DNA from: an uncultured Gammaproteobacteria bacterium
GTDB lineage: Bacteria > Patescibacteriota > Patescibacteriia > Magasanikbacterales > UBA922
Reading direction: 5' to 3'
NCBI GenBank assembly: GCA_964447765.1
Contig: CAYUTO010000001.1
Coordinates: 121,125-185,124, forward strand
Length of the DNA stretch: 64,000 nucleotides
Below the pieces are notes generated by a model. That model was not told the DNA's origin. It saw only the letters and a list, made by a program, of their open reading frames with translations, and made no database searches. Shown in pieces: positions 21,845-44,721 of the stretch. Every line of letters starts with the position of its first letter. Position 1 is the stretch's first letter. Made by a program: the position numbers and the translations under genes.

Positions 21845-21850
21845 ATATAT

Positions 21851-21895
21851 GCTCACACACTGGGACGAGTTTCAAACTGTTTTGACTAACTCTAC
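21851..21895. repeat. Conserved ~45-nt 3'-UTR motif, copy 1 (gctcacacACTGGGACGAGTTTCaAACTGTTTTgaCTAAcTCTAC)
   Basis: Near-identical to 29608..29652. Lies between the stop of gene 21960..25016 and its terminator. Confidence 0.6.
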
Positions 21896-21959
21896 TCCAT
21901 TGCTTGGTAATATTTTTCTTGGCTCTGACACGTGGGCAACTCCTGAACCTTAGCAAATG

Positions 21960-25543: not shown

Positions 25544-25873
25544 ATAGCACTATCATAGTTTTTATAATTTTAATGTCAAGAAAAAACAAGCTTTAATAGC
25601 TTGTTTTTTGCTCGCGAGGAGTTCCTTAGTTGGAACACTATAGAGCAAACTGCTAGAAAGTGGATTACCACCTTCAGAAGATATGATTAGGGAATTGCTG
25701 TGGCCTATTCTAGCTGAAATTCTTCGTGTTCACAATACCTCATAGAGACTGGAACACTGCAAATCCTAACACCCATTTTGTTCTAGTGGTCTTTTTTACG
25801 CTCAACTCTGCATAATTTGACACTATTTTTTATTACTGGTAAAATTTTACCAGTAATTTATTACCTACAAAAT

Positions 25874-28800
25874 ATGTCTACCATCGGCTCTCGTATTACC
25901 TCCATTAGAAAAGCGAAGAAAATCACGCAGGAAAAACTGGCAAAATCTGCTGGGGTTGATTATAACACGCTCAGAAAAGTTGAAACAGGAAAAACTAAAA
26001 ATCCTGGTTCAGAATTTATTGAAAAAATTTCTCTTGCCCTGAGTGTGACGACAGATCAGCTAATAGAGCAACCAAAGCCGGAGGTCAAAGGCGGTGACAT
26101 GCTCCCCTTTATGCAATTACCCCACGGTAATTTTGAGAAAATGATACTGACAATCCTTCAGTCTGATAATGGTAGGTATACAGATATAGAGCCGTTTGGA
26201 GGTAGGGGTGATAAAAATAGAGACATACTTGCAGTTGAAATTATCGGACAAAAACCCGCCGCCAGTAAGACTTTATTTCAAGCGAAGCGTCATGAAAAGA
26301 CAACATACACGACTCTTGAAGACGAATTGATTGGTATAAAGACTCACTTTTTTGATCAACCAAATCCTGCAACTCCAATAGAAAAAATTGTTTTTTGTTT
26401 GGCTGATACACCCTCCCCCACCATAAAAGATAAACTAAAACTCTTTGCTCGAGAAAATAATTTGCCCGAGCCAATCTTTTGGGATGCCCGAACAATCGAT
26501 GTCATGTGTAAAAGAAGCAATCAAATTATCAATGAGTTTTTTGGCGGTCATATTGTGGAGGCAATAGAAGGTGTATCACAAGTTATGACAGAAGTCTTAA
26601 ATATAAAAGAAATGGTCCAAAAAAATACTTCCTCTACCAAACCAGATTCTACACTAACATCAGTAAGTTCTAAAGGCGACGCTCAAATGCAAAAAGCTCG
26701 AAGGCTTATTGGTGAAAAAAAGTATTCTGAAGCAAAGGATATACTTTTGACCATTAAAGAAACAGTTGAAAATTCGAGCGACCATGAACGACTAAAAAAA
26801 CTCTACAACAATCTCGGCCTATGTCTCTCCAAAGAAAACAACTCAGAAAGCCTAAAACAGAGTCTAGATTATCTGTACATGGCTATCGATCTCAAGGTTG
26901 CAAAACAAAATCTTATCGAGGTGATAATAAATAAAGAGGTCAAGGATAAGTATGACGATGCGCTCAAATATGCGCAGGAGCTTTTAGCCGAAGAACCAGA
27001 TAATTTGGACTATGCAGCGTTATACATACATGCACTAAATGCGAAGGATAAAATGCCGGATGCTAAAAAATTTATCGAAACTGACAAAAAAATAAAAAAT
27101 CGTATACAAGAAAATGAAGCTCTTTCAGTAGCTGTTTCCTTAGTCTATTTCATACTCCAAGAGGTTGAAAAAGCTAGTCTTTATGTAGACAATGCTTTGG
27201 AAATTTTTCCTGAATCATGGAGATTGAATAGATTTAAGGGTACAGCATTAATGCTTGAAGCTGAAAAAGGAATGCTCTCAAGAGATATTGACATCATGCC
27301 CTTCTTGAAAACAAATTTAGTCGAGAAGGCAGTGGAACATTTCGAAAAATCCCTGGATCTTGCAATAAATGATGGAGCACCCGAGTTTATGCACAACCAA
27401 ATTCGGTTATGTATATACAGCGCCATGATTTCTTTACGTAGAGGTCAATCGAGTAAATTCAAAGATGCTTACTTAAAAACACTCGAAAAAAGCATCGATG
27501 ATGGCCAGCTCAGTGAAACGGAGTCAAAGGCTAAAGTTGTGGCAAAAATATCTCAAATGCTTGAATGCGAAAGAAATTTTGAGACTGCTTACACTATCTT
27601 CAAAGAAGAAATTGTAGAGAAATATAATGCAACTTACAAAACTATTCTGGATATGGCGCACAAATTTTTTCAGCACGGTGCACCGGAATATTCGATTAAA
27701 TTGCTCGAACCACTACATGATGAGGCGAAGGAGAACAACGATTTTGAGTACTGGGCAGTTTTGAGCACATGCCATGCCTTACTTAATGACAAAAACTCAG
27801 CTCTACGGACAATGAACGAAGCACAAAAGCATTTTTCTTCTTTGACAGATATTGAGTTAAAAAGAAGAATACTTTCACACTACAGCGCATTAACTGCTCG
27901 CTATCACGATAACAGCGAAGCTGAGCGCATGTTCAGAAGTATGACTGAATTGCAAAATATCACACCAGAGGAAACAATTGTTCAGCCAATAGAGGCTCTG
28001 ACTTCTGACGGTCACCTTACTCAGGAAATGAAAGACTTTTTTGAGAACAATAAGAAGGATTTTATAAAGAAAAAAGAAAAGTTTGTTAATACTCCAATTC
28101 CAGTATACTTCTTGGAGAGAATTTTCAGTAGAAATTTCCCTGAAGCCCTAGAAATTCCACGGAATAACTATGATTTTGAATTTGTAATACATTACAATGC
28201 CCTAGATAAGGAATTTTTACATAGGCAGGTTGAAATTCTTGAAAAGAATGACACATTTGTCATTGATTATAGTGCCCTGCTAAATTTTTCTCGCACTGGG
28301 CAATTGGGATTATTTAGTGCACTTGGCAAAAAGGTATTAGCCTCTGAATATCTATTATTCCAAGTACAACAAGATCTAATGGTTTCCGAAAATCACACAT
28401 TACGGAACGCATGGAATTTTCTCCGCGGAGGAAATGTACAACTTTTTCCCTACATTGAGATTGAGAAAGGCGCTTTGCCCAAACTGATTAAAGACTTTTT
28501 CAGCGAATGGATGCCTTGGTTTGCACAAGAAATAGTATACTGTTTAAAAAATAAGACCCCTCTTATAACCGACGATCTACGCATGCTCAGTTACTTGAAC
28601 TCAGAAGAAGTTGGACTAGCTTCCATAAATAGCTTTATTTTTTTTCAAACAGGACTCATAACCGGCGCTCTTGATAAAAAACAGTATAGCCTTGTATTAG
28701 GTGATCTTGCAGACATGTTCTATCATTTTATTGCATTCAATGGAGAAGATTTGTTACATATTGTCGCAGACGATACTAACAAAATTAGAAATGGCAGTAC

Positions 28801-29209
28801 CCAAGATTGGATGAGTTTTAAAGAGCATGGTGAAAACTTCAAGGTCTCTAGAAGGGCTTACCATTTATTGAATCAAGTTCACTTACCTGGATCAGAGGTA
28901 ACAAGCTTTTTAGCAGTGTCCTTAGATTTTCTTGAGCGCCTGATTAAGCTCAGCTTTACTGAAGATGAAAAAATGGACTGGGTTCTATTTATGACAAATT
29001 TTTATGGAGGTTTTCTTTCTGAAGAAAATTTTAATACCCAACGAGAGCAGTTCACTGTTCACTTAGAGTTCGTTATTAGAGCGTGGGTTCTGATCTTTCA
29101 ATCTTTACCCAAGAATAGACCTGACATCTTAAAAAAGGCAGGTAAAATCAAGTACGAACATCTACGTTTAGCCATTGAAAATTCTTTAAGAAAAGGAATG
29201 GAACTATAA
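25874..29209 (+). CDS. Multidomain protein: XRE-type HTH, Mrr-like PD-(D/E)xK nuclease domain, TPR-like repeats and a ~450-aa unknown C-terminal domain
   Basis: HTH: ITQEKLAKSAGVDYNTLRKVETGK. Mrr_cat-like: FGGRGDKNRDILAVE...FQAKRH (D-E-K). The track start at 25817 is a TTG; the ATG at 25874 is preferred. Confidence 0.6.
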   Translation: MSTIGSRITSIRKAKKITQEKLAKSAGVDYNTLRKVETGKTKNPGSEFIEKISLALSVTTDQLIEQPKPEVKGGDMLPFMQLPHGNFEKMILTILQSDNGRYTDIEPFGGRGDKNRDILAVEIIGQKPAASKTLFQAKRHEKTTYTTLEDELIGIKTHFFDQPNPATPIEKIVFCLADTPSPTIKDKLKLFARENNLPEPIFWDARTIDVMCKRSNQIINEFFGGHIVEAIEGVSQVMTEVLNIKEMVQKNTSSTKPDSTLTSVSSKGDAQMQKARRLIGEKKYSEAKDILLTIKETVENSSDHERLKKLYNNLGLCLSKENNSESLKQSLDYLYMAIDLKVAKQNLIEVIINKEVKDKYDDALKYAQELLAEEPDNLDYAALYIHALNAKDKMPDAKKFIETDKKIKNRIQENEALSVAVSLVYFILQEVEKASLYVDNALEIFPESWRLNRFKGTALMLEAEKGMLSRDIDIMPFLKTNLVEKAVEHFEKSLDLAINDGAPEFMHNQIRLCIYSAMISLRRGQSSKFKDAYLKTLEKSIDDGQLSETESKAKVVAKISQMLECERNFETAYTIFKEEIVEKYNATYKTILDMAHKFFQHGAPEYSIKLLEPLHDEAKENNDFEYWAVLSTCHALLNDKNSALRTMNEAQKHFSSLTDIELKRRILSHYSALTARYHDNSEAERMFRSMTELQNITPEETIVQPIEALTSDGHLTQEMKDFFENNKKDFIKKKEKFVNTPIPVYFLERIFSRNFPEALEIPRNNYDFEFVIHYNALDKEFLHRQVEILEKNDTFVIDYSALLNFSRTGQLGLFSALGKKVLASEYLLFQVQQDLMVSENHTLRNAWNFLRGGNVQLFPYIEIEKGALPKLIKDFFSEWMPWFAQEIVYCLKNKTPLITDDLRMLSYLNSEEVGLASINSFIFFQTGLITGALDKKQYSLVLGDLADMFYHFIAFNGEDLLHIVADDTNKIRNGSTQDWMSFKEHGENFKVSRRAYHLLNQVHLPGSEVTSFLAVSLDFLERLIKLSFTEDEKMDWVLFMTNFYGGFLSEENFNTQREQFTVHLEFVIRAWVLIFQSLPKNRPDILKKAGKIKYEHLRLAIENSLRKGMEL

Positions 29210-29262: not shown

Positions 29263-29553
29263 ATGATCACAAAAAAGCAAAAACTCGAATGGGTAATTAT
29301 AGTGTTATTAACTTTTATCTGTATCGGATGTCTATTCCTTGTTAATAATAGTAAAGGAATGATACAAATCCCTGTTTTTAAAATCATCTACGAAAGCGCG
29401 CTGATTGCTACGCAATTTGTGTATGGATTTTGTAAAATGTTTGCAATACTTATGTGGTATACAATTACTCACAGCTGGATTACCATACTAATAACTTGTG
29501 CATTAATCGCGCTGTTTATCACTAATATTTTTTACCGTCGCACCAAAGATTAA
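29263..29553 (+). CDS. Small membrane protein, hypothetical
   Basis: 96-aa ORF with three hydrophobic helices. Confidence 0.3.
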   Translation: MITKKQKLEWVIIVLLTFICIGCLFLVNNSKGMIQIPVFKIIYESALIATQFVYGFCKMFAILMWYTITHSWITILITCALIALFITNIFYRRTKD

Positions 29554-29572
29554 TGAGGTAGTTTGAATAATA

Positions 29573-29605
29573 AAATAATACGACCTATAGGTCGTATTAT
29601 TTTAT
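29573..29605. terminator. Bidirectional rho-independent terminator
   Basis: aaaataatacgacctataggtcgtattatttt perfect palindrome. Confidence 0.6.
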
Positions 29606-29607
29606 TA

Positions 29608-29652
29608 GCTCCCATACTGGGACGAGTTTCGAACTGTTTTAGCTAATTCTAC
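29608..29652. repeat. Conserved ~45-nt 3'-UTR motif, copy 2
   Basis: 37/41 core identity to copy 1. Lies between the stop of gene 29706..30296 and a terminator hairpin. Confidence 0.6.
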
Positions 29653-29705
29653 ACTACATGTGTTTATCTAACAAGATATTCTTGGGATAAAAAATTTGAA
29701 TTTAA

Positions 29706-30296
29706 CTATAGATATTTTTGTAATTCTACTACAAGTTTTTCCCACTTTCTAAAGTATTCCTCGAGAGTCATTTCTTTTATACCATGCATTTGGTAAAGAA
29801 CATTAGTATCATCTTGATTACTATCAACATGAAATGTGTCAGGTTTTTCAATTCCTCCCAATTCAATATAGGTAAATTGTTTCTTTTCATCTACCTTTTC
29901 AGCTACTCTTTCACCAGCTCGAGGACAAAGATCATCTAAAATAAGTCTTATCTGTTTTGGTAAAAAAATATCAGAGCGTGTGTTAATATGATTGAAAAGC
30001 CCCCAGACACTTTGATCAAAAATGACTTTCTCATGTCTAATCATTGACAACTGTTCTGTATAAAAGTTTTCTCTATTTGCTATTATGTCGTTAATGTAAA
30101 TTTGATGCCATGATTTGCCTTTAGAATGAATTAAAAATCTTATTGTTTGAGTATATTTAAGTAAATCCTTTGCAAAGTTATACCTTTCTTTTCCACGTGT
30201 TTCTTTTTTCCATGAAAACAAAGCAAATCCAGCAATGATAACCATTACAAGTTGAAGTACTATATCAGTTATTTTTAAAATAATATCAGTTTCCAT
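29706..30296 (-). CDS. Small N-terminally membrane-anchored protein; putative partner of the PHP-ABC ATPase
   Basis: Directly downstream of 30378..33167 on the same strand. N-terminal TM helix. Confidence 0.4.
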   Translation of the reverse strand: METDIILKITDIVLQLVMVIIAGFALFSWKKETRGKERYNFAKDLLKYTQTIRFLIHSKGKSWHQIYINDIIANRENFYTEQLSMIRHEKVIFDQSVWGLFNHINTRSDIFLPKQIRLILDDLCPRAGERVAEKVDEKKQFTYIELGGIEKPDTFHVDSNQDDTNVLYQMHGIKEMTLEEYFRKWEKLVVELQKYL

Positions 30297-30377
30297 TGTA
30301 TATTTAGTGAAAAATATATTTATTTGAGCGGATTTACTCGGGCGACTGGGAGACGTTAGAGCTCATTTTATCAAAAA

Positions 30378-33167
30378 TTAAAAATTATATTTTTTCTTTC
30401 TTTGCTCAAAAGCAGTTTTTCCACCCTCAAGAATATCACAAACATGTTCTTGAATCCCTCTTTGCTCCAAGACATAATCAGAAGATTCATTCAAAAAAGT
30501 ATTTTCCAATGCCCCTTGTGCATATTCAAATTTATAGGTTTTATTCTTTGATTTATCGCCACTTTGATTTGCTACAATAACACATTCAGAATCTGCTCCA
30601 ACGACTAAATTTGGGTTATGAGTTGCAATAATTATTTGCCTATCTTTCTTTTTTGTTTTTATAAATTTTACAAGATCGTTATATATTGAACGATTATCTA
30701 AATCATCTTCTGGTTGGTCGAGTAAAATAGGACATCTGCTATTATCAAGTTCAATCAAAAGTTTGAGTAGGACAAAAGATTTTTTTCCTGGTGACATTTC
30801 CGAAATTTCATCTCCATTTTGTTTGATTATGTAGTCAAAGCTAAACCATAATTGAGTGAGTTTTGTAATAGCCTCCTTCTTAGAATAAGAATTTTTCAAA
30901 TTTATTTTTTCATTCAAAATAGCTTGTAAAATTTTCTTTAGATCAGCTTTAAAATTTGTTGTATTTAAAAACTTATAATCCTGTAAAACAACTTCTTCAA
31001 ATTTACTCAGCTTCCTTTGATCAAAAATATCATTTATACAGTGTTCCTGAAAAGATTTGACCTCAAACAGTATATCTATCCCAAATTCTAAATCTTGATC
31101 ATGCGTAATACTTCTTTGTTTCAATATTTCAGTTTTAGCATTAAAAAAATTATCGAAAAACTTAGAGTGGTTTTCAACAATACTTTTAATTAGATTCTCA
31201 TAAGCAGTTTTTAATGTTTCAAGATTCTTTTCTTGATCAATGATCTGCTTGAGTTTCTTTTCCTCTTCTTCGAGTTTTTTTATTTTCTCATCAAGAGATC
31301 TTGATTTTTGAGCTTTCTCTAAGAGAGGATTAAAGATTTTATGTAATTCTTCTAACGTATTTTCATGATCCGTTTTCTGTTTTTCTATTTTTTTGTTTTC
31401 CATTTCAATTGTTTCATGCCATTTTGCTTCCGCCTCTTCTAATGTTGTATTTAGACTATTTTGAAGATTCTTTTTAATACCAACCTCAAGAGAATCTAAA
31501 TATTCTTGGGTCGAAGAAAAAACACCAAAGTTTTTTTGAGATTTTAGAGCAGTGAGAGAATTTAAATCTTTCCCAACCTTTTCTTGGATTACTTTTAGAT
31601 TGGTAATTTTTTCTAAAGTATCATTATAATCTTTTATTTCATCATCGCTCATCCCTGCTTTTTTCTTGAGTTCCGAAACTTCTTTTTTCAGTTTTTCAAT
31701 TTCAGATTCGATTCCCTTTTTATCTCCAATCTCTTTAATACTTTCACTTTGATTTTTTATATCATTTTCTTTATAAAAAAGGTCTTCGATATTTTGTGTT
31801 ATGGTTTTTTCTACTTCTCTATTTTGATTTTGCAACTGAGTAAAAACATTCTTTACATCCTCCTCTTGTTCTAAGACATTTTTGATAATATCATCAATTG
31901 AAGTTTTCCCTTCTTTTTTATCAACGAGTCTATTAAGATATGATTGTGGAATATAAATAATTTTTTTATTTACCCCTGTATCTTCATCTTTTTTATTTAT
32001 TTGCTCGTCTCTCCAAACAACATGAAAATTTGCAACTTCATTTGGATATGGATCAATATTTACCTCACTAAGTCTTTTTGTTACCTCTTTAGGGTCAATC
32101 GTTTGTGCAATATTTCTTAATAAAATAGACTTTCCTGTAGATTTTCCTCCAATTATCGCTGTTAAATTTTGATTTATAAAAATCTCATTCGGAGTAAATG
32201 AATCATCAACAAATTTTACTATATCAATTGTTTCATACACATTTTTTTCTTCTGGTTTTAATTCTTGTATTTTAACTCTATCCTCTGGTTCACAAACTAT
32301 TTGGGTCAATCCCTCAAATGTTGTATCTGCTTTTATCCATGTAATTTCTGCGTAGTCTCCAATTTGCCCGTCTTTCCTTACTTCTTCAAACGATTTACCT
32401 AACTTATTATCTAATGTCTCAAATGAGTGAGAATCAGAACCAAAAACCACAGGTTTAGGAGCCAAGTTATAATCATTTCTCTTTCCTTCTTTATTAAGAT
32501 AAAAATCTACATTTTTTGAATTGCCAAAAAATACTTTACATTTTTTATCTAATTCTTTAGCATACTCAGATCCTCTCCCGTCATTTGATCCATTTGGTCT
32601 TAAGGAGCCGTATCCATTCGAAACACCAACAATTAAATATTCATTACTAATAAAATCTTTTTTTAATTTATTCTCCAATTCATCAATTTTAATCATTGCT
32701 TTATCGTATCCAATTTCATTCAAATCGGTCTCGATACAATACTTGTTAGTTAAATTTTCATCGTCAGTGGAGATGAGTTCTAATCTTGTAAAAAAATTAT
32801 TGATTTTATCTAAAGTAGACTGTGCATTGGAAAAAATTATATGAAATTGAATATGTTCCTCTTGGCTATTTTTTGATTCTGTTCTAAACTCAATATTTGG
32901 AAAAAAAACTTTTTTTGAATCTGGATACTTCTTTTTAAATTTTTCAACAAAAACAAAAAAATTTTGAATAGAAAAATAATCTGTTATTCCCACAACGGAA
33001 ACGTCAGAATTTTCTATTTTCTCACAAAAAATATCCCAGATATCCTGCTCACCAGTAGCGAGATATTGGTTATTTAATTTTGTTTCAGGTGGGTGGACAT
33101 GTAAATCCCACTTTCTCCATTCTGAGCCTCTTAAATAAGAGGCATTCGTTTTATTTGTTTCAGACAT
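30378..33167 (-). CDS. PHP-domain phosphoesterase fused to SMC/RecF-like ABC ATPase with long coiled coil (candidate defense protein)
   Basis: N-terminal WRKWDLHVHP and GSDSH PHP motifs. Walker A IIGGKSTGKS. ~300-aa Lys/Glu coiled coil. Signature-like EMSPGKKS. Walker B ILLDQPEDDLD. H-loop IIATHNP. Confidence 0.65.
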   Translation of the reverse strand: MSETNKTNASYLRGSEWRKWDLHVHPPETKLNNQYLATGEQDIWDIFCEKIENSDVSVVGITDYFSIQNFFVFVEKFKKKYPDSKKVFFPNIEFRTESKNSQEEHIQFHIIFSNAQSTLDKINNFFTRLELISTDDENLTNKYCIETDLNEIGYDKAMIKIDELENKLKKDFISNEYLIVGVSNGYGSLRPNGSNDGRGSEYAKELDKKCKVFFGNSKNVDFYLNKEGKRNDYNLAPKPVVFGSDSHSFETLDNKLGKSFEEVRKDGQIGDYAEITWIKADTTFEGLTQIVCEPEDRVKIQELKPEEKNVYETIDIVKFVDDSFTPNEIFINQNLTAIIGGKSTGKSILLRNIAQTIDPKEVTKRLSEVNIDPYPNEVANFHVVWRDEQINKKDEDTGVNKKIIYIPQSYLNRLVDKKEGKTSIDDIIKNVLEQEEDVKNVFTQLQNQNREVEKTITQNIEDLFYKENDIKNQSESIKEIGDKKGIESEIEKLKKEVSELKKKAGMSDDEIKDYNDTLEKITNLKVIQEKVGKDLNSLTALKSQKNFGVFSSTQEYLDSLEVGIKKNLQNSLNTTLEEAEAKWHETIEMENKKIEKQKTDHENTLEELHKIFNPLLEKAQKSRSLDEKIKKLEEEEKKLKQIIDQEKNLETLKTAYENLIKSIVENHSKFFDNFFNAKTEILKQRSITHDQDLEFGIDILFEVKSFQEHCINDIFDQRKLSKFEEVVLQDYKFLNTTNFKADLKKILQAILNEKINLKNSYSKKEAITKLTQLWFSFDYIIKQNGDEISEMSPGKKSFVLLKLLIELDNSRCPILLDQPEDDLDNRSIYNDLVKFIKTKKKDRQIIIATHNPNLVVGADSECVIVANQSGDKSKNKTYKFEYAQGALENTFLNESSDYVLEQRGIQEHVCDILEGGKTAFEQRKKKYNF

Positions 33168-33176
33168 AGTATTCTA

Positions 33177-34667
33177 TTAACAAGAGTGCTTTACCAAAAA
33201 CTCCCAAATTCGAACCATCGCCATCGTATCAAGTTTACAATACTCAAGGAGGTCTTCTTTGATGGTTTGTTTTTCTTCTTTCGTAGCCTTGTCTCCAATC
33301 ATGTATTCCCATCGTTCACTGGCTTGATCACCTTTTTGGATATTCAAGCTCTTATACGTCAAATCAGGCACCAATACAGGCAATATTTTTTTGATACTGG
33401 CACTTCCCACGAACTTTGCGTCTACATAGTATTGATTCGAGAATATCTCCATGAGGTCAAAGATATTGTCTACCAAACTCATAAGAAAATCAGCATGTTC
33501 AGGATGAAGCTCTATAAGTTTTTCAATACGTTGTTTCTCGTAATTTTTGTACCACACGATGAGTGTTCCATTCGGGTCGAGATCCTCACGCATTCTGTCG
33601 ACGAGTGCTTTAGTCATATCACGACTAGACTCGGTAATCAAGAACTCTTTATGCTCTGTTGTGCCGTCTTCCTGAACGATATGGAGTGAGTATTGAAACG
33701 GAATCTGTTCGTATGCACCAAACCCATTTGCAAGGGGGATAACGCTCGTATAGCCCTCAAAATCAAAGAATTGGAGGGGGTATTGAAGCCCACCAAGTAA
33801 CTCTCGTATCTTGTCATGGTCTATAGATGTTTTTCCTGTAATGTACGCCTCGTATTGAGCTTTTTTTGCACCTTTCAGGGATTCAGGATTGTCTATGTCT
33901 TCCAAAGCGTAGATACCCCGATCAATCCAATCTTCCAATAATTTTTTGCTTCCACCGATACGGTTTATATCGTGTACAGAATACTCGGGTACTTGTGGGT
34001 TTGAGTGAGCAAAGGTAGTACATTGATTGCTTCGCCCTTGATAGATACAGAGACAGCCCTTTTCTTCGGGCATAGTGAGATACTGCTTCATGTCTTCCAT
34101 TTGTTTTCTCACCTCATCGTCAAGAGTGGTTACTTCTCCTGAAACATCTTCGGTCACAAATAATTCGTAATAATTGATTGCGCCGTTTCGTCTATACTCT
34201 CTATTGAGATGAATAACACCCGTTTTCACAATCTTGATACCACTTTTTTCAATAACAATCTTCTGAAAAGCAAGATCCTTGATATAGTGCATTGGTTCTT
34301 TTCGTTTTATTTCATTCGCCGCCTTTACCTCATAGAGTTCATAGCCACCAAGCTCGTTATTTTTTACCAATACATCGGCTCGGATAAAGAATACATCTTC
34401 TTGAAAGGTGGCCTGAAATAGTATCTGTGTACCAACTTCAATATATTGCTTTGTGTCATTTACGGCGTCCGCACCCTGACTATCTACGAAAACGCCACCG
34501 TTAAATAGGTGACGTGCTTCGGTATCTGCAAGGTTTCCTTCTTCGATAATCTTACGCTCAAATTCCGACAACTCGACACCTTCAAAAAGCTCGGGCTTGT
34601 GTTTTTTTAGCCAAAGATTTTTTCTACAAAAGGTATATTCGAGATAGTCGGTTTTGGTTAAGATCAT
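33177..34667 (-). CDS. DUF2779-like domain protein (predicted nuclease-related)
   Basis: N-terminal ILTKTDYLEYTFCRKNLWLKKHKPELF matches the LSKS.F..G.QC.K.LWL..H.PEL pattern of DUF2779 proteins. Confidence 0.5.
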   Translation of the reverse strand: MILTKTDYLEYTFCRKNLWLKKHKPELFEGVELSEFERKIIEEGNLADTEARHLFNGGVFVDSQGADAVNDTKQYIEVGTQILFQATFQEDVFFIRADVLVKNNELGGYELYEVKAANEIKRKEPMHYIKDLAFQKIVIEKSGIKIVKTGVIHLNREYRRNGAINYYELFVTEDVSGEVTTLDDEVRKQMEDMKQYLTMPEEKGCLCIYQGRSNQCTTFAHSNPQVPEYSVHDINRIGGSKKLLEDWIDRGIYALEDIDNPESLKGAKKAQYEAYITGKTSIDHDKIRELLGGLQYPLQFFDFEGYTSVIPLANGFGAYEQIPFQYSLHIVQEDGTTEHKEFLITESSRDMTKALVDRMREDLDPNGTLIVWYKNYEKQRIEKLIELHPEHADFLMSLVDNIFDLMEIFSNQYYVDAKFVGSASIKKILPVLVPDLTYKSLNIQKGDQASERWEYMIGDKATKEEKQTIKEDLLEYCKLDTMAMVRIWEFLVKHSC

Positions 34668-36979
34668 ACAATAATCAAACTTTGCCAGCCTTTCATTGCG
34701 TTTGTATAAGAGTATTCTTTGTTTGAGTTAATCTTCCAGCCATTTTCATCTTTGACGACAATTCCACCTACAAAGCCCTTCTTATTCTTTAGCCATTCTT
34801 GTAATGCTTCGGCTTTGTATTTTGTGTCATTTGATTCTGCTGTAAAACCAGCTTTGGTATCAACGATCCAAATCTTGTTTTTGGTTTTGATTATCCAGTC
34901 GGGATAAAATAGTTTTTCTTTGTTCTCATCAGGATTGTAGTATGAGATAGAAAAAAATTCACTACCAGAATCTCCATTTTTATACCACCACTCAATAGCA
35001 TTTTCTTTTTCTTCTAAAAATTTGATAAATCCTTTTTCATTATCGACAACTTCTTTGGAAATATAAAATGGTTCCAAAGCGGATTTCTTTACTTTCATCT
35101 CTTCGTAGTTATCTGTAAAGAAGAGAGACGCTCTAGGCACTTCAATAATTTCCGTTCTTTTTGAGCGAACGGATTTTTTGTTTACCTCTTGATCACGAAT
35201 AGGACGATATGAGAATAGTGCTTCGCCGATGATTGGTCTCAAAACACCACTTTCTCTCAACAGATCATTGAGAATAACTTTGTATGCGTGAGTTCGGTCG
35301 TCCCCAAGTATTGGAAGAAGCCACACATTAAGAGCTGTTTTGAGTTTTCCCCATGAACGTTCAGGGGCAAACTTTTTATCTTCATCTGTTTGTTTACTGA
35401 CAATGTTAAAACAAACCAAATTATAGAGTCTTTCAATATCATGTTGAGACATGTCTTGATCGTGACTATCACCCTCGGCGAGCAATTCTTTGGTAAAATT
35501 GTCATAATCATCAATCTCCACACCAACGATAATGCCGTTTGTCACTTGAGGTTTTAGTTCAAGACCTTTTGCGGACAGTTTCTTTTTTGCTTCGCTATCA
35601 TTATCTTTTAAAGAGAATGTCTTGTTTGCTATCTTTTTGAAAGTGGTTTGAAATGAATCACCAAGGTCATTATAGTCTGTACGGCTCATGAAGATGGATT
35701 CAATCTGAATTGGTTCAATACCTTCTTTGCGATAACTACCGTAAATAGCTGGTTTATTTTCTGATTTGTTCTTATCGTATTCACTAATAACCTCGTTTCT
35801 TTTGTAGTTTGTATAGAGATACCCAAGATTCAATTCAGGCTTACCGAAATGAGTGCCGTGAGGCATACGAAGAATACGACCAACCGTTTGAATAGCAAAG
35901 GTAGGATTCTTAATTTCACGGAACATCACAAGCACGCCTGCACGTGGACAATCCCACCCAGTAGCAACAGCTTGCTTGAACAAAAGAAATGAGATAGATG
36001 AATTATTTCTTTCTACATCTTCGAGGTTAATTTTATCTTCCGAAAGCCAAACGGCAATATCATTTTCTGAAACACCTTTTTTCTTGAGATAGTTTATGAC
36101 AATTTCTTGTTTGTTGATATTACTCGTTTCACTCGTTGCCTTGTCATCATTGGGGAGCTGTATCAACACAAGAGGATTTATCTCAATACCAAGTGCCTGA
36201 TAGTATGAGAGTAGTTCTTTTCTTTTTTGATAGGCAAGTTCAAGAAGAATTTCATCTTGATCCATTCCTTTGAATTGCTTTTGATTCAAGTCTTCTTCTG
36301 TTTGAAATATAATTTTTTCTTTAATCAAACCTTCTTTGACCACATCTTCACGTCTGACACGAACAAAACCAGCTATTTTATCTTCGAGATCACTTACCGT
36401 AGGCTCAAATTTAGGAGTAGCAGACGCACGGATAATTATCTTTGGCTTGATAAGACCATCAATAAGTTCTAGGGCTTTTTCCGTATCAGCACCGAGGTGT
36501 TCTTCGTCGATAATAACAACAATTTTTCTATTTTCTTCATGAGTCGATTCTATCATCCCATCAAAAGAAATATCCTGTTCGTTGTCTTTACGAATTTTGA
36601 GCACTTCTTTTGATTGTCCTTTGAGTTTTTCCCAGTTTATAAAAAACACGCTATTACGAGTCATGATTTTACGATTCAAATCATTGATATCCAAAAGCTC
36701 TAACTCCGAAGCACCCCCGTAGTATTGAAAGAGTTTGTTTTTACTTTGTTCAACAAGAGTGGGACCTTTTGACATCCATAAAAAAGCCACATCATTACCT
36801 ATAAAACGAGGGTCGGCAATAATATCTCGCAAAAATTGAGCAAGCATGACAGTTTTCCCTGATCCTGTCGGAGATTTGAATACTAAAGGAAGTTGATTAT
36901 TAGATGATTTCCAAAGGTCAAGAAATTGATCCTTTAGTTTTGCAATAGCAATTTCTTGAAAAGGTTTTAGTGGAAACAT
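34664..36979 (-). CDS. Type III restriction enzyme Res subunit (SF2 helicase plus nuclease)
   Basis: Walker A SPTGSGKT, DEEH box, helicase motif VI QTVGRILR. Translationally coupled to mod. Confidence 0.7.
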   Translation of the reverse strand: MFPLKPFQEIAIAKLKDQFLDLWKSSNNQLPLVFKSPTGSGKTVMLAQFLRDIIADPRFIGNDVAFLWMSKGPTLVEQSKNKLFQYYGGASELELLDINDLNRKIMTRNSVFFINWEKLKGQSKEVLKIRKDNEQDISFDGMIESTHEENRKIVVIIDEEHLGADTEKALELIDGLIKPKIIIRASATPKFEPTVSDLEDKIAGFVRVRREDVVKEGLIKEKIIFQTEEDLNQKQFKGMDQDEILLELAYQKRKELLSYYQALGIEINPLVLIQLPNDDKATSETSNINKQEIVINYLKKKGVSENDIAVWLSEDKINLEDVERNNSSISFLLFKQAVATGWDCPRAGVLVMFREIKNPTFAIQTVGRILRMPHGTHFGKPELNLGYLYTNYKRNEVISEYDKNKSENKPAIYGSYRKEGIEPIQIESIFMSRTDYNDLGDSFQTTFKKIANKTFSLKDNDSEAKKKLSAKGLELKPQVTNGIIVGVEIDDYDNFTKELLAEGDSHDQDMSQHDIERLYNLVCFNIVSKQTDEDKKFAPERSWGKLKTALNVWLLPILGDDRTHAYKVILNDLLRESGVLRPIIGEALFSYRPIRDQEVNKKSVRSKRTEIIEVPRASLFFTDNYEEMKVKKSALEPFYISKEVVDNEKGFIKFLEEKENAIEWWYKNGDSGSEFFSISYYNPDENKEKLFYPDWIIKTKNKIWIVDTKAGFTAESNDTKYKAEALQEWLKNKKGFVGGIVVKDENGWKINSNKEYSYTNAMKGWQSLIIV

Positions 36980-36981: not shown

Positions 36982-38736
36982 TTATAGACGGTTAATCTCT
37001 TTGTATACCTCAAGAATTGGTTCAGGGATATCTTCGACACGGACATTTGCTGAACTATATTCACTCTTATATTCATTTTTACCCCAGCTAAAAATATAGA
37101 GCACTGCTGGTTGTTTTTTCTTTTCTAACTTTTCTACCAAATCGTGCAATTTCTCTTTGTCTTCTTTAAAGTAGATAGCTGTGGATTTGCCGTGTCCTTC
37201 AAATATCTGCCACCACTCATTTTTTTCTGTCTCATTGAGAGTATTTTCACGTAGACCAATCATTTCTCCTGCTTGATATGTGAGTTTTACCTTTGCTTGG
37301 TCGGGGGTGTGATGAAGTTTTTCAATATCGACAAGATCAGTTTTGTAGTAACGAAGATTACCTCCGAGACCTTCTACTTTTTCTCCTTTTTTACTCTTAT
37401 ATCCTTTGATAACTTTGTTTAATCTGGTAAATGTTATATTTTCGCAAATACCGTTCTCATTATTGGTACAAAGAATAAAGTTACGATTACCGCCATCTAA
37501 ACTATTAAGCTCAAGGACAGAGTGTCCAGTTGTGCCTGATCCAGCAAAAAAATCTAATACCAATATATTTTTATCTTTGTTAGTTATATTCAACAAATGA
37601 CTAACAAGCTCTTTAGGTTTAGAAAAAGAAAAGTCTATGTCCATCTGTATTAAAACTTTTGAACCTAAGGAATTTGGTAAATCAATAAAAGTAAGAGGTT
37701 TGAGTCCTTTTTCTTGTCTTTCGTGAAGATAAATTTTTGTATATACATTCCACTTTGATTGCTTGCCGTTCTCGTCAATAAGCGGTGATGTTTTACTTTG
37801 TATAAAAACAACACGATCATCTTTTAGATTTCTCTCAAAGGTAGATGGAATCCATCTAAACATTTTATCTTTTTCAGGGGTAGTGACTTTTGATCCATCA
37901 GGGCATTCTATAAAATACCTCTGATTTGGTCGGGGATCTAGACTCGGCATGTACAATGAAACGATATTATATTTACCTCTTTTATCTTCGTATTTAAATA
38001 ACTTGAGATAACCATCATCAGTTTGTGCAGCCGCGTCATTAAACTCTCCTAGCTCATCAATATCCTTGGCATAACAAAGAATATAATCTGTCGACGGTGA
38101 AAAATATTTTCCTTTATTACTCGTCTCTTTTGACTTACGAACAATGTTTGCTAAAAAATTTTTTTCACCAAAAACACCATCACATAACAACTTAAGTTGA
38201 GCCATTTCATCATCACCGATACTGACAAAAAATACACCGCTCTTTTTAAGTAAATCTCTAGAAAGAAGCAGTCTTTTTTCAATAAAAGAAGTCCACTTGC
38301 TATGTCGAAAGGCATCATCCTTGTCCACGAATTTATCATTATAAGAAAAATCATTATTACCTGTATTATATGGAGGGTCGATATAGATAACATCAATTTT
38401 CCCTTTATGGGTATAATTCAAAACAGATAAAGCATGATAGTTATCTCCTTCGATCAAAATATTTTCCGTCTTTGTTTCATCAGTAATAACAACAGGTTCT
38501 ACTCCTTTCTGTTTTTCTTTTAAACGTAAAATAGGAACATTGCGTTTACAATCTTCCACAATTTGCTCTGGCTTCTCTTCCCAAACCAAACCATATTTTT
38601 TTTGCTTTTTTATTTTCCTCAATTCCTTTTCAAGATCTTCTATTTTTTTAGAAAGTATTTTTTCATTTGAATTCATAGCAAACTCCTTAATCCATATAAA
38701 ATATGATTGATTCCATTTTATACTTTTTTCAAGCAT
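36982..38736 (-). CDS. Type III R-M DNA adenine methyltransferase Mod
   Basis: DPPY motif IV in VIYIDPPYNTGNDF. AdoMet motif FFAGSGTTGHSV. Confidence 0.75.
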   Translation of the reverse strand: MLEKSIKWNQSYFIWIKEFAMNSNEKILSKKIEDLEKELRKIKKQKKYGLVWEEKPEQIVEDCKRNVPILRLKEKQKGVEPVVITDETKTENILIEGDNYHALSVLNYTHKGKIDVIYIDPPYNTGNNDFSYNDKFVDKDDAFRHSKWTSFIEKRLLLSRDLLKKSGVFFVSIGDDEMAQLKLLCDGVFGEKNFLANIVRKSKETSNKGKYFSPSTDYILCYAKDIDELGEFNDAAAQTDDGYLKLFKYEDKRGKYNIVSLYMPSLDPRPNQRYFIECPDGSKVTTPEKDKMFRWIPSTFERNLKDDRVVFIQSKTSPLIDENGKQSKWNVYTKIYLHERQEKGLKPLTFIDLPNSLGSKVLIQMDIDFSFSKPKELVSHLLNITNKDKNILVLDFFAGSGTTGHSVLELNSLDGGNRNFILCTNNENGICENITFTRLNKVIKGYKSKKGEKVEGLGGNLRYYKTDLVDIEKLHHTPDQAKVKLTYQAGEMIGLRENTLNETEKNEWWQIFEGHGKSTAIYFKEDKEKLHDLVEKLEKKKQPAVLYIFSWGKNEYKSEYSSANVRVEDIPEPILEVYKEINRL

Positions 38737-38793: not shown

Positions 38794-39393
38794 ATGAACA
38801 GATTGACCAAACGACAAAAGGAAATATTCGACTACATCTGCACATATCTTGAAGAAAACGAGGTTTCCCCCTCGTTAGAGGAAATAAAAGAGAAGTTCGG
38901 TCTTTCCGCCCTCTCTACCGTTCATGAGCATATTACCGAGCTCGTAGACAAAGGGTATTTGCGCCGAGATGAGCGAAAAGAACGAGGGCTGTACTTGCCA
39001 GCAAAACGCCAGCAGTACATAGAAGTACCTCTCCTTGGGACGATTGCTTGCGGTGAACCACTGGAAGCAATTGAAACCCCCGATGAATTTATCAGAGTAG
39101 TCCGAGAAGAACCCTTGCGAGGCACGATATATGCCCTCAAAGCAAAGGGTGATTCAATGATACAAGAAGGTATTTTTGACGGTGATTTTATTATCGTCAA
39201 AAAGCAACAAACAGCAGAAAATGGCGATACCGTTGTCGCAATCATAGACGATAACGAGGCGACGCTTAAAAAATACTATCAAGAAAAGGATAGGATTCGA
39301 TTACAGCCAGCAAATCCGACGTTTAGCCCAACGTATAGACAAGAGGTAGAAATTCGAGGCGTTGTGGTGAAGATTATTCGGAATTTAAAATAA
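38794..39393 (+). CDS. lexA: LexA-like repressor (wHTH plus S24 peptidase)
   Basis: N-terminal LexA DNA-binding domain. A CG at the expected AG cleavage position. Ser/Lys dyad GDSM ... IIVKK. Confidence 0.7.
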   Translation: MNRLTKRQKEIFDYICTYLEENEVSPSLEEIKEKFGLSALSTVHEHITELVDKGYLRRDERKERGLYLPAKRQQYIEVPLLGTIACGEPLEAIETPDEFIRVVREEPLRGTIYALKAKGDSMIQEGIFDGDFIIVKKQQTAENGDTVVAIIDDNEATLKKYYQEKDRIRLQPANPTFSPTYRQEVEIRGVVVKIIRNLK

Positions 39394-39447
39394 ATATGAG
39401 CGATTATCTTTCGTATTCACTATTCGCTATTCAGTTTCTTAACCCAC

Positions 39448-40257
39448 ATGAAACTCTCCGCCGACACCATCAAGAAGCGCATGCTCGAGTTCACGCAACT
39501 CTTCTCGATAGAGCGGAATGTTTTTCAGCGTTTCGTGATTGTATATAAATACATCTACTTCCTCAACACCGACCCAGTAGCAAAAAGCGTTCTCCAAAAG
39601 ATATTCGACGAGACCTCCAAAGTCATGGGCGAACACAGCGAAGACTGCCTCGACGAGGATCAGTTCCTCGACGTCAAAGGACAAGCTATTTTTTCACGCC
39701 AATTTTGGATATATTATAGCAATCTTGAGATTATCTACGGCAAGATGAAAAAGCTCAAGAAGTGTGGCGTTGACGATAAACTCGAGTTTGAGACTCTGTG
39801 TCAGCTGTTCTCAAAGCCCTACTCTCGAGACATGTTGTCCCTTTCGTTCAAGGTAGTGAACAGCGAGATATTCAATCAACTCGATAAAGAATCGTTTTTT
39901 GAAGCGGAGAAAGAAGAAACATGGTTTGATGACAAATTGAGTGTCCTCTACGTACGGAGTAAGAAAGTGCTTATCAATAAGCAAGACAAGATCACGAACG
40001 CTCACAAGCTCCTGCACCATATTTTCATCACCAACAAGAATAATATCGAAGACGAGTTTTTCTACTCGGAAATAGCCGATGATGAGTTTGGGGATATGGA
40101 CTACACCAAAGATCAGGAAGCATGGAAACGCTATCACCGTGCGAGTGAGTATGTGAACGAGAAAATCTGCGAACAGACAGATAATGAAATACGAGATTTC
40201 CTTGTGTATAACACAGGTAAACAAGGTAGAGTGAAAATCAACAAAGCATACCTCTAG
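39448..40257 (+). CDS. Hypothetical protein (first prophage-side gene)
   Basis: Clean 269-aa ORF followed by a hairpin and T-run terminator near 40282-40305. Confidence 0.4.
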   Translation: MKLSADTIKKRMLEFTQLFSIERNVFQRFVIVYKYIYFLNTDPVAKSVLQKIFDETSKVMGEHSEDCLDEDQFLDVKGQAIFSRQFWIYYSNLEIIYGKMKKLKKCGVDDKLEFETLCQLFSKPYSRDMLSLSFKVVNSEIFNQLDKESFFEAEKEETWFDDKLSVLYVRSKKVLINKQDKITNAHKLLHHIFITNKNNIEDEFFYSEIADDEFGDMDYTKDQEAWKRYHRASEYVNEKICEQTDNEIRDFLVYNTGKQGRVKINKAYL

Positions 40258-40430
40258 TTCCGCAAAATTCTATACAAAACAGCTCTCAACCGAGGGCTTT
40301 TTTGTTATTCCCGTAAATCTTCTCCAAAACTTTTGGGAACAGTGAAATTCTATTATGCCTACATCGCAAAAACAAAGGTCGATTGCGAACACATGTAACT
40401 CATATTTTATGAAAGAAACAATACAAGTCT

Positions 40431-40694
40431 ATGTTCAAATTAACAGGAGTTCTCAAAAAAGAAGAAGTTCGGGAGTTCACACGCAAGGACGGGAGTCAGG
40501 GACAAAGCCGAACACTCTTCATCGAACCAGAAGGAAGCGTGTACCCAGTAAAAGTAAATGTGTCCGACATGGATCTCAAAGTCGGCAAACAGGGAGAAAA
40601 AGTAACAGTCGACGTGGCAATATTTCCGTACTTTATCGAGGGCGGTAAACGCAAACGAGCGTTCACGGATTACTACATCCCTAACAAGAAATAA
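40431..40694 (+). CDS. Filamentous-phage ssDNA-binding protein (g5p-like), putative
   Basis: 87 aa, beta-rich and basic. Sits directly upstream of the small hydrophobic and coat genes, as in the inovirus order gV-gVII-gIX-gVIII. Confidence 0.45.
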   Translation: MFKLTGVLKKEEVREFTRKDGSQGQSRTLFIEPEGSVYPVKVNVSDMDLKVGKQGEKVTVDVAIFPYFIEGGKRKRAFTDYYIPNKK

Positions 40695-40696
40695 GT

Positions 40697-40849
40697 ATGG
40701 ATTTCTTTACCGTAACAACCACCACCATGAGCTTGACCGACGGCGCATTGGATCTGATTAACTTTTTCAGCCAACTCTTTACCGTGTCGTTCGCGCTGGT
40801 ATTTGGTCTGCTTGCGGTGATCATCCTTTTACTCATCTTTAAAACATAG
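40697..40849 (+). CDS. Small hydrophobic protein (inovirus minor coat g7p/g9p-like), putative
   Basis: 50 aa with one TM helix. The ATG immediately follows the g5p-like stop. Confidence 0.35.
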   Translation: MDFFTVTTTTMSLTDGALDLINFFSQLFTVSFALVFGLLAVIILLLIFKT

Positions 40850-40852
40850 GCT

Positions 40853-40963
40853 ATGGCTGGTCTCATAAACAATCTATTCGAGGGATTCGGCCTAAGCCTT
40901 ATGTTTCCTCTCGTTCTATTCATAGTCGTCAGTGTCTTCTTGGCGATAACTTCGGGCAAATAG
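40853..40963 (+). CDS. Small hydrophobic protein (inovirus minor coat-like), putative
   Basis: 36 aa with a single TM helix, tightly packed with its neighbours. Confidence 0.3.
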   Translation: MAGLINNLFEGFGLSLMFPLVLFIVVSVFLAITSGK

Positions 40964-40964
40964 T

Positions 40965-41117
40965 ATGTGTTCCGCATATATCTTACTAAACAACTCGTGC
41001 TACGTAGATGATTTCCTCATGATAGGACAGGTCTACGCTAAAGCGATTGTTCTCGGTTTGGTACTTGGAACAGTGGTCGGCTTACTATTGTTATTCATAA
41101 GACACATAAAAGACTAA
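40965..41117 (+). CDS. Small hydrophobic protein, putative
   Basis: 50 aa with a TM helix. Its stop overlaps the coat gene ATG (taATG). Confidence 0.3.
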   Translation: MCSAYILLNNSCYVDDFLMIGQVYAKAIVLGLVLGTVVGLLLLFIRHIKD

Positions 41118-41392
41118 TGGCTATGACTGAGAAAATCAAAAGCCTTGTCCTTGGTACCAAAGCAAAAGTAACCGCATTCGGGCTCGCGCTCGCTGGTGGA
41201 CTTTTGGCTGGAACAAGTGCGTTCGCTGCCGTGGACGCTGATGTCGCCTCTACGACCGCAAGTGTGGTCGACACGATGAAAGAAAATGTGGTCGGTGTAA
41301 TTACCGCCAACATCTCAAATATCGTGATTGTAGGTGTGATCATCTTCTCCATCGGCTTCGTTTGGCGCCTTGCTCGTCGGTTCATGCGATAG
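41117..41392 (+). CDS. Inovirus major coat protein (g8p-like)
   Basis: Signal peptide. Acidic/amphipathic N-terminus, a hydrophobic helix IVIVGVIIFSIGFVW, and a basic C-terminus RLARRFMR. Confidence 0.6.
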   Translation: MAMTEKIKSLVLGTKAKVTAFGLALAGGLLAGTSAFAAVDADVASTTASVVDTMKENVVGVITANISNIVIVGVIIFSIGFVWRLARRFMR

Positions 41393-41473
41393 GCTTCGGC
41401 ACTGCGGGGGCTTGCTCTCAATAAGCAAAAGCCCCCGCAACGGTGCCTCATGACATACAGATAAAATATCCAT

Positions 41474-43183: not shown

Positions 43184-43186
43184 CGT

Positions 43187-43432
43187 ATGTTTACTTTCAT
43201 TGAATCAATTCTTGTAAAAATTATCTCACTCTTACCCGACGCTGATCCGAATAATTCAGTTATTACGGCCGTCACAAACGCATTTGCCACTATGGCACCG
43301 ACATTCTCGCAAATTGACCTTGTCTTTCCGATATTCGTATTGTTCAAAGTATTACTCCTCGTGATGTTCGTGGAAATGACAATCTTCTTGTTTACGTTCA
43401 TTTTGCAGATTGCAACATTCTTTAAACCATAA
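43187..43432 (+). CDS. Small hydrophobic protein (g6p-like), putative
   Basis: 81 aa with two hydrophobic helices, between the g3p-like gene and the Zot-like gene. Confidence 0.4.
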   Translation: MFTFIESILVKIISLLPDADPNNSVITAVTNAFATMAPTFSQIDLVFPIFVLFKVLLLVMFVEMTIFLFTFILQIATFFKP

Positions 43433-43437
43433 CCTCT

Positions 43438-44154: not shown

Positions 44155-44492
44155 GAACCACTCCCGACCTGTTCTACTTGTTTGATGTAGAACAGGTGTA
44201 CCCGTTTCGGGTACTTTCGGACGGTCGTACCGTCCTTATCTTTCTTCTCAATGATAATGAAAGACTGAAGAGCTTTTTCACCCTTCTTTACTTGGTAGCC
44301 CATCTCGAGCCACCGATTATACGTCAAACAATTACTTTTTGGATCGTAATTGTTCGCGTCCTCTTCGCCGAAGCGAGCGAGAATCTGCTTGCGTACAAGG
44401 TCGGAAGTAATTTCCGAACCTTTCCATGTGGAAACGATTGCGTTTTCCATAGAAATAAAAAATACAGCCGAATTGATAACATCCGAAGACAA
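44151..44492 (-). CDS. Hypothetical protein (prophage-encoded, opposite strand)
   Basis: Clean 113-aa ORF convergent with the Zot-like gene. Confidence 0.35.
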   Translation of the reverse strand: MSSDVINSAVFFISMENAIVSTWKGSEITSDLVRKQILARFGEEDANNYDPKSNCLTYNRWLEMGYQVKKGEKALQSFIIIEKKDKDGTTVRKYPKRVHLFYIKQVEQVGSGS

Positions 44493-44635
44493 GGCTGTTT
44501 ATTGCCGTATCGGACAAGACAGAAACAAGCGTCTGATAGCTTGCTTTAGTCAAGGTGGAGACTTGTTACTACCTTTACCAAAGAAAAGCTGACGCTATAC
44601 TGCCTCGCCCTGATACGGAATATGAGCATTGATTT

Positions 44636-44721
44636 ACGGTATCCCGTACCGAATGGATACCGTCCCTCTGACAAACAATCTTTTTTTGGCGGCTGCCCGA
44701 CGACAAAAAAAGATTGTTTGT
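44636..44721 (+). promoter_or_regulatory. Hairpin cluster upstream of Rep; candidate phage origin / packaging signal
   Basis: Perfect 17-bp inverted repeat acaaacaatcttttttt / aaaaaaagattgtttgt (44671-44721) and cggtatcc/ggataccg (44638-44662), in the Rep 5' intergenic region. Confidence 0.4.

Follow-up and report, generated by a model that had tools for sequence, protein, structure and literature searches.

Ppl is tabulated among single-gene defence systems together with hhe, qatABCD and upx (PMC13223576), and as a single gene it defends against T7, which then gives small, turbid plaques, while gp130 of Bas63 counters it (PMC11482910). According to PMC12904381, Ppl is reported to be a single-stranded DNA 3'-5' exonuclease that is kept off by nucleoside triphosphates (NTPs) in its PHP and NTPase domains, and NTP depletion combined with 3'-OH ends that a phage endonuclease produces activates it. 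The mechanism study is Xu et al. 2026, Mol Cell 86:180, as cited in PMC13434339 and PMC13223576. The related name TrlF comes from the temperature restriction locus of Photorhabdus laumondii, trlR-trlF-trlG (PMC7554251). Two further ATPases are relevant here, namely RloC, a responder to DNA breaks whose coiled-coil insertion is Rad50-like, and PrrC, which is always embedded in a Type I restriction-modification (R-M) locus (PMC3458546, PMC3874168, PMC2610378). We analysed a TrlF gene and its surroundings in 64,000 nucleotides (nt) of DNA (the window; positions 121,125 to 185,124 of contig CAYUTO010000001.1, assembly GCA_964447765.1) from an uncultured bacterium placed by GTDB in Patescibacteriota. 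We conclude that this gene encodes a TrlF-family homolog of Ppl, carried as mobile defence cargo at the end of a Type III R-M operon; its mechanism would resemble that of Ppl, and it probably works in connection with restriction.

Family and architecture of the large protein

An earlier note, made from the sequence alone, had described this locus as an uncharacterized two-gene antiphage system, in which a 929-amino-acid (aa) PHP phosphoesterase fused to an SMC-like ABC ATPase is paired with a 196-aa membrane-anchored partner. Both open reading frames (ORFs) exist at the coordinates it gave, on the same strand (Table 1), and the fusion of a PHP domain to an SMC/Rad50-like ABC ATPase is borne out by motifs, by Foldseek and by alignment to Ppl. 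Profile searches of the kind that it had proposed place the large protein in a family that already has a name. Against NCBIfam NF045780 (TrlF family AAA-like ATPase, an equivalog model) the protein scores 565 bits, where the cut-off is 350, and the alignment runs end to end, from residues 13-928 of the protein to positions 1-944 of 944 in the profile. This score puts it above the curated cut-off and thus within the TrlF family, and since the related Ppl has a published mechanism, the word uncharacterized has to be dropped.

The relation to Ppl extends over the full length of both proteins. When the TrlF family profile was aligned with the E. coli Ppl reference (WP_000233113.1, a stand-alone gene on an IncF plasmid), hhalign returned 99.7% with an E value of 3.4e-26 over 766 columns, residues 13-914 on 2-886, including the PHP motifs. 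We therefore regard TrlF and Ppl as full-length homologs that share one architecture and belong to different subfamilies. In PADLOC, the Ppl model matches only the C-terminal half of the large protein (residues 485-923, E 1.7e-16), and no model other than Ppl and HEC-01A matched. In the PDB, neither the protein nor the family profile found sequence matches past the Walker-A-level ones to PtuA and AriA.

Every PHP, Walker A, signature, Walker B and H-loop motif listed in the earlier note is present (DLHVHP starting at residue 21, GSDSH at 243, GGKSTGKS at 340, MSPGKKS at 791, DQPEDD at 817 and ATHNP at 848), and all show little or no variation across 32 aligned homologs with 41-78% identity. 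Among the PHP ligands, D21, H25, E93, H109, D245 and H247 are invariant and H23 is near-invariant; in the ABC ATPase, K346, Q408, S792-S797, D817, E820 and H850 are invariant or nearly so. A Pfam scan at E<=0.01 gave no PHP match for the protein, as PF02811 is below threshold in this sequence, though it was found in homologs. We nevertheless assign a PHP domain because of the conserved set of His, Asp and Glu residues, the alignment to Ppl, the PF02811 matches in homologs, and the Foldseek matches, all with probability 1.00, that link the N-terminal domain to PHP domains in RNase AM (7ug9, 9etk) and Pol III alpha (2hpi, 2hqa).

In the AlphaFold2 (AF2) model (pLDDT 84.7, pTM 0.65), an alpha/beta barrel (residues 17-300) is followed by the N-lobe of the ATPase, by long paired helices that take up about 250 residues, and by the C-lobe of the ATPase. 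The K/E-rich coiled coil that had been predicted lies at residues 436-684, where K and E make up 32% of the residues versus 23% over the whole protein and Cys is absent, with DSSP helices at 436-480, 483-503, 508-543, 562-620 and 623-684. Foldseek matches of the ATPase and coiled coil are JetC, MukB, Rad50, SMC, LmuB, RecN, RecF and AriA, and Pfam AAA_21 gives a sub-threshold match at residues 784-855.

Table 1. Features of the window, and R-M genes tightly upstream of TrlF in other loci (L numbers denote loci).
Feature	Position	Strand	Basis or members
Perfect 18-bp-stem hairpin with flanking T/A runs	29568..29607	.	inverted repeat; RNA fold -26.7 kcal/mol, z -6.3
Variable cassette, TrlF + small gene, between stretches conserved in close relatives	29683..33200	.	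blastn vs L103/L106
196-aa single-pass membrane protein, small family so far in Patescibacteria-like contigs	29706..30296	-	
TrlF-family (Ppl-like) PHP phosphoesterase / SMC-like ABC ATPase, 929 aa	30378..33167	-	NCBIfam, hhalign, AF2
ABC ATPase head C-lobe, ~residues 693-927; SPGKKS 792-797, Walker B ILLDQPEDD 813-821, H-loop H850	30387..31091	-	
Antiparallel coiled-coil insertion, ~residues 436-684, K/E-rich, no CxxC zinc hook	31116..31862	-	DSSP, composition
ABC ATPase head N-lobe, ~residues 314-432; Walker A GGKSTGKS 340-347, Q-loop Q408	31872..32228	-	conservation, AF2
PHP domain, ~residues 13-300, predicted metal-dependent exonuclease module	32268..33131	-	conserved ligands, Foldseek, Ppl alignment
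DUF2779 protein, N-terminal Cas4/RecB-like nuclease region	33177..34667	-	PF11074 1.1e-36
Type III restriction subunit Res	34664..36979	-	PF04851 ResIII 2.2e-15; PADLOC REase_III 2.5e-18
Type III methyltransferase Mod	36982..38736	-	PADLOC MTase_III 8.3e-92; PF01555
Type I genes upstream of TrlF			HsdR (L013, L018), HsdS (L044, L058)
Type II endonucleases upstream of TrlF			HinP1I (L010), CfrBI (L030, L035), EcoO109I (L073, L076), Eco47II (L079)
Type IIG/ISP upstream of TrlF			Eco57I-like (L019, L059, L072)
Type III genes upstream of TrlF			Res (L024, L026), Mod (L085)
Type IV upstream of TrlF			GmrSD (L029, L037)
Methyltransferases upstream of TrlF			L031, L063

TrlF as accessory cargo

The best Foldseek matches of the ATPase are the heads of Rad50, SMC, MukB and RecN, and a weak NCBIfam Rad50 match was also found (18.6 bits, cut-off 700). 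PHP domains, for their part, proofread in Pol III and Pol X. These points favour a housekeeping DNA-repair ATPase-nuclease, analogous to SbcCD, Rad50-Mre11 or RecN, that lies near R-M genes by chance. The distribution of the gene makes such a role very improbable, and a Pfam scan found no Mre11/SbcD-type gene adjacent to it. Four relative contigs are collinear with the window at 89-91% nt identity over a stretch that runs from the Zot-like gene across LexA, Mod and Res to DUF2779. Homology to them breaks off at window position 33201, which is 25 nt short of the DUF2779 stop, and returns only at 29605-29682, a stretch of 78 nt. In the slot between, the relatives carry a convergent Peptidase_M78 and HTH_3 pair, DUF3892 and small ORFs, and neither TrlF nor the small gene. 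These breakpoints and the different genes in the slot mean that the coordinates of TrlF and the small gene coincide with those of a swapped cassette. The earlier note had held that conservation of the gene in the same context in all relatives would mark it as housekeeping; instead, TrlF is absent from relatives that are ~90% identical at the nt level.

Other properties of the gene agree with this. The adjacent DUF2779 protein has nine relatives at >=90% identity, one of them labelled Candidatus Magasanikbacteria, while TrlF and the small protein are singletons in clustering at 90% identity. In the cassette region GC content drops to 0.28-0.34, versus ~0.40. The TrlF family is scattered over many phyla, with at least 584 matching stretches in species-representative genomes, and it occurs on 1104 plasmid records, of which 825 are conjugative; PGAP applies the name to hundreds of plasmids. 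Overall, its absence from syntenic relatives, the low GC content, the scatter over phyla and the presence on plasmids demonstrate that TrlF is accessory, horizontally moving defence cargo and not a housekeeping gene.

TrlF and restriction-modification operons

The surroundings named in the earlier note (DUF2779, a Type III R-M system, a prophage and a tRNA) were all located, the last two as an integrated element beside tRNA-Gln. R-M genes had been mentioned there simply as neighbours; they are indeed present, and it is with them, rather than with the small gene, that TrlF is recurrently linked. In the window, the spacings are 2 nt between Mod and Res, -4 nt between Res and DUF2779, and 9 nt between DUF2779 and TrlF, and no terminator-like site was found on the minus strand between Mod and TrlF. 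TrlF is thus attached here at the end of a translationally coupled Type III R-M operon, Mod-Res-DUF2779-TrlF. The small gene follows 81 nt downstream on the same strand, and after it the operon is closed by the hairpin, which is a bidirectional terminator (Table 1). Further matches of the DUF2779 gene are RNase_H_2 (2e-4), PADLOC Cas4 (8e-5) and the RecB-like TIGR03491. The true start of Mod is probably an internal Met at 38676, as relatives encode 565 aa.

Two side observations concern this operon. Within Mod, a segment of ~590 nt (37560-38151) shows no nucleotide homology to relatives, although the sequence on either side of it is ~90% identical to theirs, which looks like the swap of a target-recognition domain and would thus represent a change of specificity. 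Divergent from the operon, at 38794-39393 (+), is a LexA homolog (LexA_DNA_bind and Peptidase_S24), a layout shared with relatives; possibly, the operon is SOS-controlled.

The link to R-M genes recurs across the family. We called a tight upstream neighbour where a gene of at least 150 aa on the same strand lay within 60 nt of TrlF, and typed these neighbours by per-gene Pfam scans and clustering; the scans replaced a home-made iterative hidden Markov model for N6/N4 methyltransferases, which had given at least 25 of 84 loci. Tight upstream neighbours were R-M genes in 20 of 25 cases and include all the main restriction types (Table 1). The loci listed there have 32-62% identity to the query and represent several phyla. 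Among 100 other neighbours at positions +-1 to +-2, R-M domains were much rarer (~13 methyltransferases and 4 ResIII), so the R-M signal is concentrated immediately upstream of TrlF; the same 100 also include Wadjet MksE, serine recombinases, AlbA_2/HATPase_c_4, PLD and Fic. In the closest homologs (72-77% identity), we found three contexts: an integrase followed by TrlF, an N6_N4 methylase and a 370-aa protein (Type II-like); Type I HsdM-TrlF-HsdS ... HsdR; and Type III Mod-TrlF-Res. A Woykebacteria locus (L024) has the order Mod..Res-TrlF-DUF2779, in which the parts seen in the window are arranged differently. The occurrence of such similar copies in Type I, II and III operons suggests a functional coupling through a shared DNA intermediate.

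A separate arrangement was seen in Flavobacteriia (L034, L039, L045, L054, L056 and L057, ~9800-16000), where a conserved set of four genes of 445, 216 (with an MksE domain), 1070 and 319 aa directly follows TrlF. By their sizes and the MksE match, this set looks like Wadjet JetABCD.

How might TrlF work in such an operon? Extrapolating from Ppl, the module of ATPase and coiled coil would sense the ends of DNA, or DNA whose state is abnormal, and would also read the nucleotide level, and it would then license the PHP domain to degrade DNA in the 3'->5' direction. Since TrlF genes recur right after restriction genes of all types, TrlF probably works after restriction, acting on ends or damage made in the invading DNA. 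Alternatively, it could be a back-up layer for cases in which restriction is evaded. Because the partner enzymes come from restriction types that are unrelated, what they have in common is most simply a DNA product and not a protein-protein contact.

The main rival to this restriction-product reading is that TrlF guards restriction, in the manner of PrrC with EcoprrI or of AriA/AriB in PARIS, and responds to phage anti-restriction factors such as DNA mimics with abortive degradation of nucleic acids. A guard would fit the tight linkage of TrlF to R-M operons, and the layout of ABC ATPase plus nuclease resembles that of the R-M-linked PrrC and RloC (PMC3458546, PMC2610378). The ATPase is also weakly similar to AriA in sequence and fold, and Ppl turns T7 plaques small and turbid (PMC11482910). 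We nonetheless consider a guard role unlikely. Type I, II, IIG, III and IV enzymes have neither a common protein surface nor a common known inhibitor, which makes a shared DNA product the simpler link. In addition, PADLOC gives no match to AriA, PrrC or similar, and no anti-restriction protein is among the published triggers of Ppl, which are DNA ends and NTP depletion (PMC12904381).

It should be noted that several points weigh against action on restriction products, and against the transfer of the Ppl mechanism on which it draws. ORFs in the neighbour survey (80 genome loci) were called by a crude longest-ORF heuristic, and the 20 of 25 is a raw count without a formal background control. An R-M gene is at position -1 in 20 of 77 loci, or about a quarter, so that the association is frequent and not universal; other TrlF loci adjoin Wadjet-like genes, abortive-infection (Abi) genes, insertion sequence (IS) elements or recombinases. 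The TrlF-linked Type II enzymes leave 5' overhangs, and not the 3' overhang reported as the trigger of Ppl. With 72.6 bits against a cut-off of 1000 for the Ppl model NF042955, the transfer of the mechanism is an extrapolation across ~21% identity. In Photorhabdus, the temperature-restriction mutations were all in trlG and none in trlF, and so gave TrlF no role in its founder locus (PMC7554251). The literature that we searched gives no measured activity for any protein of the TrlF subfamily.

In a wider and more tentative form, we speculate that PHP-ATPases of the TrlF/Ppl type are a general second stage of restriction, namely portable exonucleases carried in R-M operons (Types I, II, IIG, III and IV) that are licensed by the DNA ends or damage produced by the co-encoded enzyme. 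We regard this as possible and as yet doubtful. If true, such modules would finish the destruction of a restricted genome, a role that would be greatest in organisms such as Patescibacteria, if these are without potent degradation of the RecBCD type. The coupling, if real, would tie the Ppl trigger of endonuclease-made ends and NTP depletion to classical restriction, and it would provide a concrete case of synergy between defence layers. The relatives of the window that carry the same R-M operon without TrlF offer a natural isogenic comparison. The assignment of TrlF to defence is in itself ordinary, given that the family was already named and a relative characterised; only the R-M coupling and the orphan membrane-protein family go beyond routine annotation.

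The small membrane protein

The 196-aa protein has the membrane anchor that the earlier note had described, a single strong hydrophobic segment at residues 9-27 (Kyte-Doolittle 2.37), and it has no matches in Pfam, NCBIfam, PADLOC or BFVD. Its family is real and conserved, with 14 sequences at 49-82% identity, and its relatives form 15 clusters only, all from Patescibacteria-like material. A candidate comparison for it is with Csx28, the membrane pore accessory of Cas13b.

That TrlF and the 196-aa protein form a dedicated two-gene antiphage system, with the small protein as sensor, anchor or second effector, is suggested by their position on one strand 81 nt apart and by the cassette that they form together, which differs from close relatives. 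A small-family member also lies near a distant PHP-ATPase (hhalign 99.85%) within a HinP1I-type R-M cluster (L109). In this locus, however, the small gene is 288 nt upstream of the PHP-ATPase, in the reverse of the order seen in the window. A search with the small-family profile found no copies in the 77 species-level TrlF loci, in the 3 contexts of the closest homologs, or in plasmid (n=3) and metagenome TrlF loci. Conversely, among 13 distinct contexts of the small family, 11 are without a PHP-ATPase, and the two that have one are the window and L109. Ppl, moreover, functions as a single gene (PMC11482910). We thus judge a two-gene system to be quite unlikely. Of the earlier proposal, the antiphage part holds to the extent that the context is one of defence and the large protein is homologous over its whole length to Ppl, a validated antiphage protein, whereas the pairing, once co-occurrence was checked, found no support.

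The small gene seems to have a history of its own. Its closest copy (L001; 82% aa and 87% nt identity) sits between dciA and hisS, and DNA homology between the two ends at the limits of the coding sequence, indicating that the small gene moves by itself. Other members of the family directly follow a Type III Res or a Type IIG Eco57I-like enzyme, lie two genes on from a Type IV GmrSD enzyme, or come after DUF4238 or, within a Type I fragment, after a Shedu-like SduA_C gene; several are among unannotated genes. The family thus tends to be found at the end of defence and R-M arrays. As a conserved unit, TrlF and the 196-aa protein are not supported; the latter is an independent cargo gene and not a conserved or required partner, and a loose relation may exist. 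Were TrlF a second stage of restriction as proposed above, this small Patescibacteria-type family would add another module at the tail of such operons. We also considered whether DUF2779 and TrlF were inserted into an ancestral Mod-Res-small cassette, an idea that came from the Mod-Res-small order in L008. It was rejected because the L008 Res has no detectable relation to that of the window, and because relatives conserve Mod-Res-DUF2779.

Two further loci touch on this family. The L109 cluster (2218-9530) contains a C5 methylase, R.HinP1I, Vsr, an AlbA_2 protein, a 245-aa protein, the small membrane protein and the PHP-ATPase, so that an AlbA_2 domain like that of TrlG, a small-family member and a distant homolog of TrlF/Ppl come together in one R-M array. 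In L099, an unannotated protein of ~245 aa (4257-4988) is encoded directly upstream of a small-family gene, and it is homologous (E 3e-21) to the product of the gene directly downstream of TrlF in L016 (9858-10610). This homology hints at a shared pool of tail genes around the TrlF and small families.

Other features of the region

Beyond LexA, an integrated element extends over ~39400-47700 and encodes a Zot-like ATPase (43438-44154), an ORF2/G2P-type Rep (44760-45569) and a large serine recombinase (46022-47662); the recombinase ORF overlaps tRNA-Gln (47602-47673). The left part of the element is syntenic in L103-L106, and the element looks like an inovirus-type prophage.

On the other side of the cassette, within the same variable low-GC region, a 1130-aa protein is encoded at 25817-29209 (+), with an N-terminal XRE-type HTH and TPR repeats. 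Residues 101-205 give a weak match to an LmuA/Cap4-like nuclease region (PADLOC E 2e-4), and this may be another defence gene. A 96-aa ORF at 29263-29553 (+), strongly hydrophobic by eye, is convergent on the small gene and shares its bidirectional terminator; it has no family matches in Pfam, NCBIfam or PADLOC and no homologs in the loci compared.

A motif of ~50 nt with the core CTGGGACGAGTTTCRAAC occurs twice in the window (21850-21900 and 29607-29660), where 0 copies are expected by chance, and it is also found in related contigs (L103 ~11632-11709, and L104-L106). Every copy abuts a strong terminator hairpin, and a promoter-like site on the minus strand (TTGTTA-17-TAGAAT) precedes the copy at 29.6 kb. 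The motif may be a short small-RNA gene or a recombination or boundary element. The 78-nt conserved flank of the cassette (29605-29682) is a repeated motif beside terminators. It was considered as a tRNA-derived att site and rejected, having no similarity to three tRNAs and no Rfam family.

Comparison with known systems

TrlF has in common with JetC/JetD of Wadjet, LmuB/LmuA of Lamassu, Gabija, PARIS and Septu an SMC/Rad50-type head and a coiled coil that are coupled to a nuclease. It differs from them in that its nuclease is of the PHP type and fused in cis, with no kleisin, KITE or Toprim partner, and at E<=0.01 in PADLOC neither TrlF nor the small protein matched a component of Lamassu, Gabija, PARIS, Septu or Wadjet. 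PrrC and RloC likewise combine an ABC ATPase with a nuclease in one protein (PMC3458546, PMC3874168, PMC2610378), but theirs is a C-terminal anticodon RNase, whereas TrlF has an N-terminal PHP domain and no CxxC zinc hook. The Pfam, PADLOC and NCBIfam scans revealed no sequence-family relation of the 929-aa protein to either.

With the TrlF of Photorhabdus, the protein shares the architecture of PHP and AAA-like/ABC ATPase, and it matches the family model NF045780 over the full length. The TRL operon differs from our locus in its partners, as the window has no adjacent trlG (AlbA_2 and HATPase_c_4) or small HTH trlR, and TrlG-like domains are present in only a few other TrlF loci. With Ppl, the protein shares the order of domains and the motifs RGSxW-K-DxHxHTP, GSDAH and W-K-(x)-F-GL, although the ~21% identity and the score far below the NF042955 cut-off place it in another subfamily. 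The two also differ in genomic setting, in that the copy of Ppl compared here stands alone while the gene in the window is operonic with a Type III R-M system.

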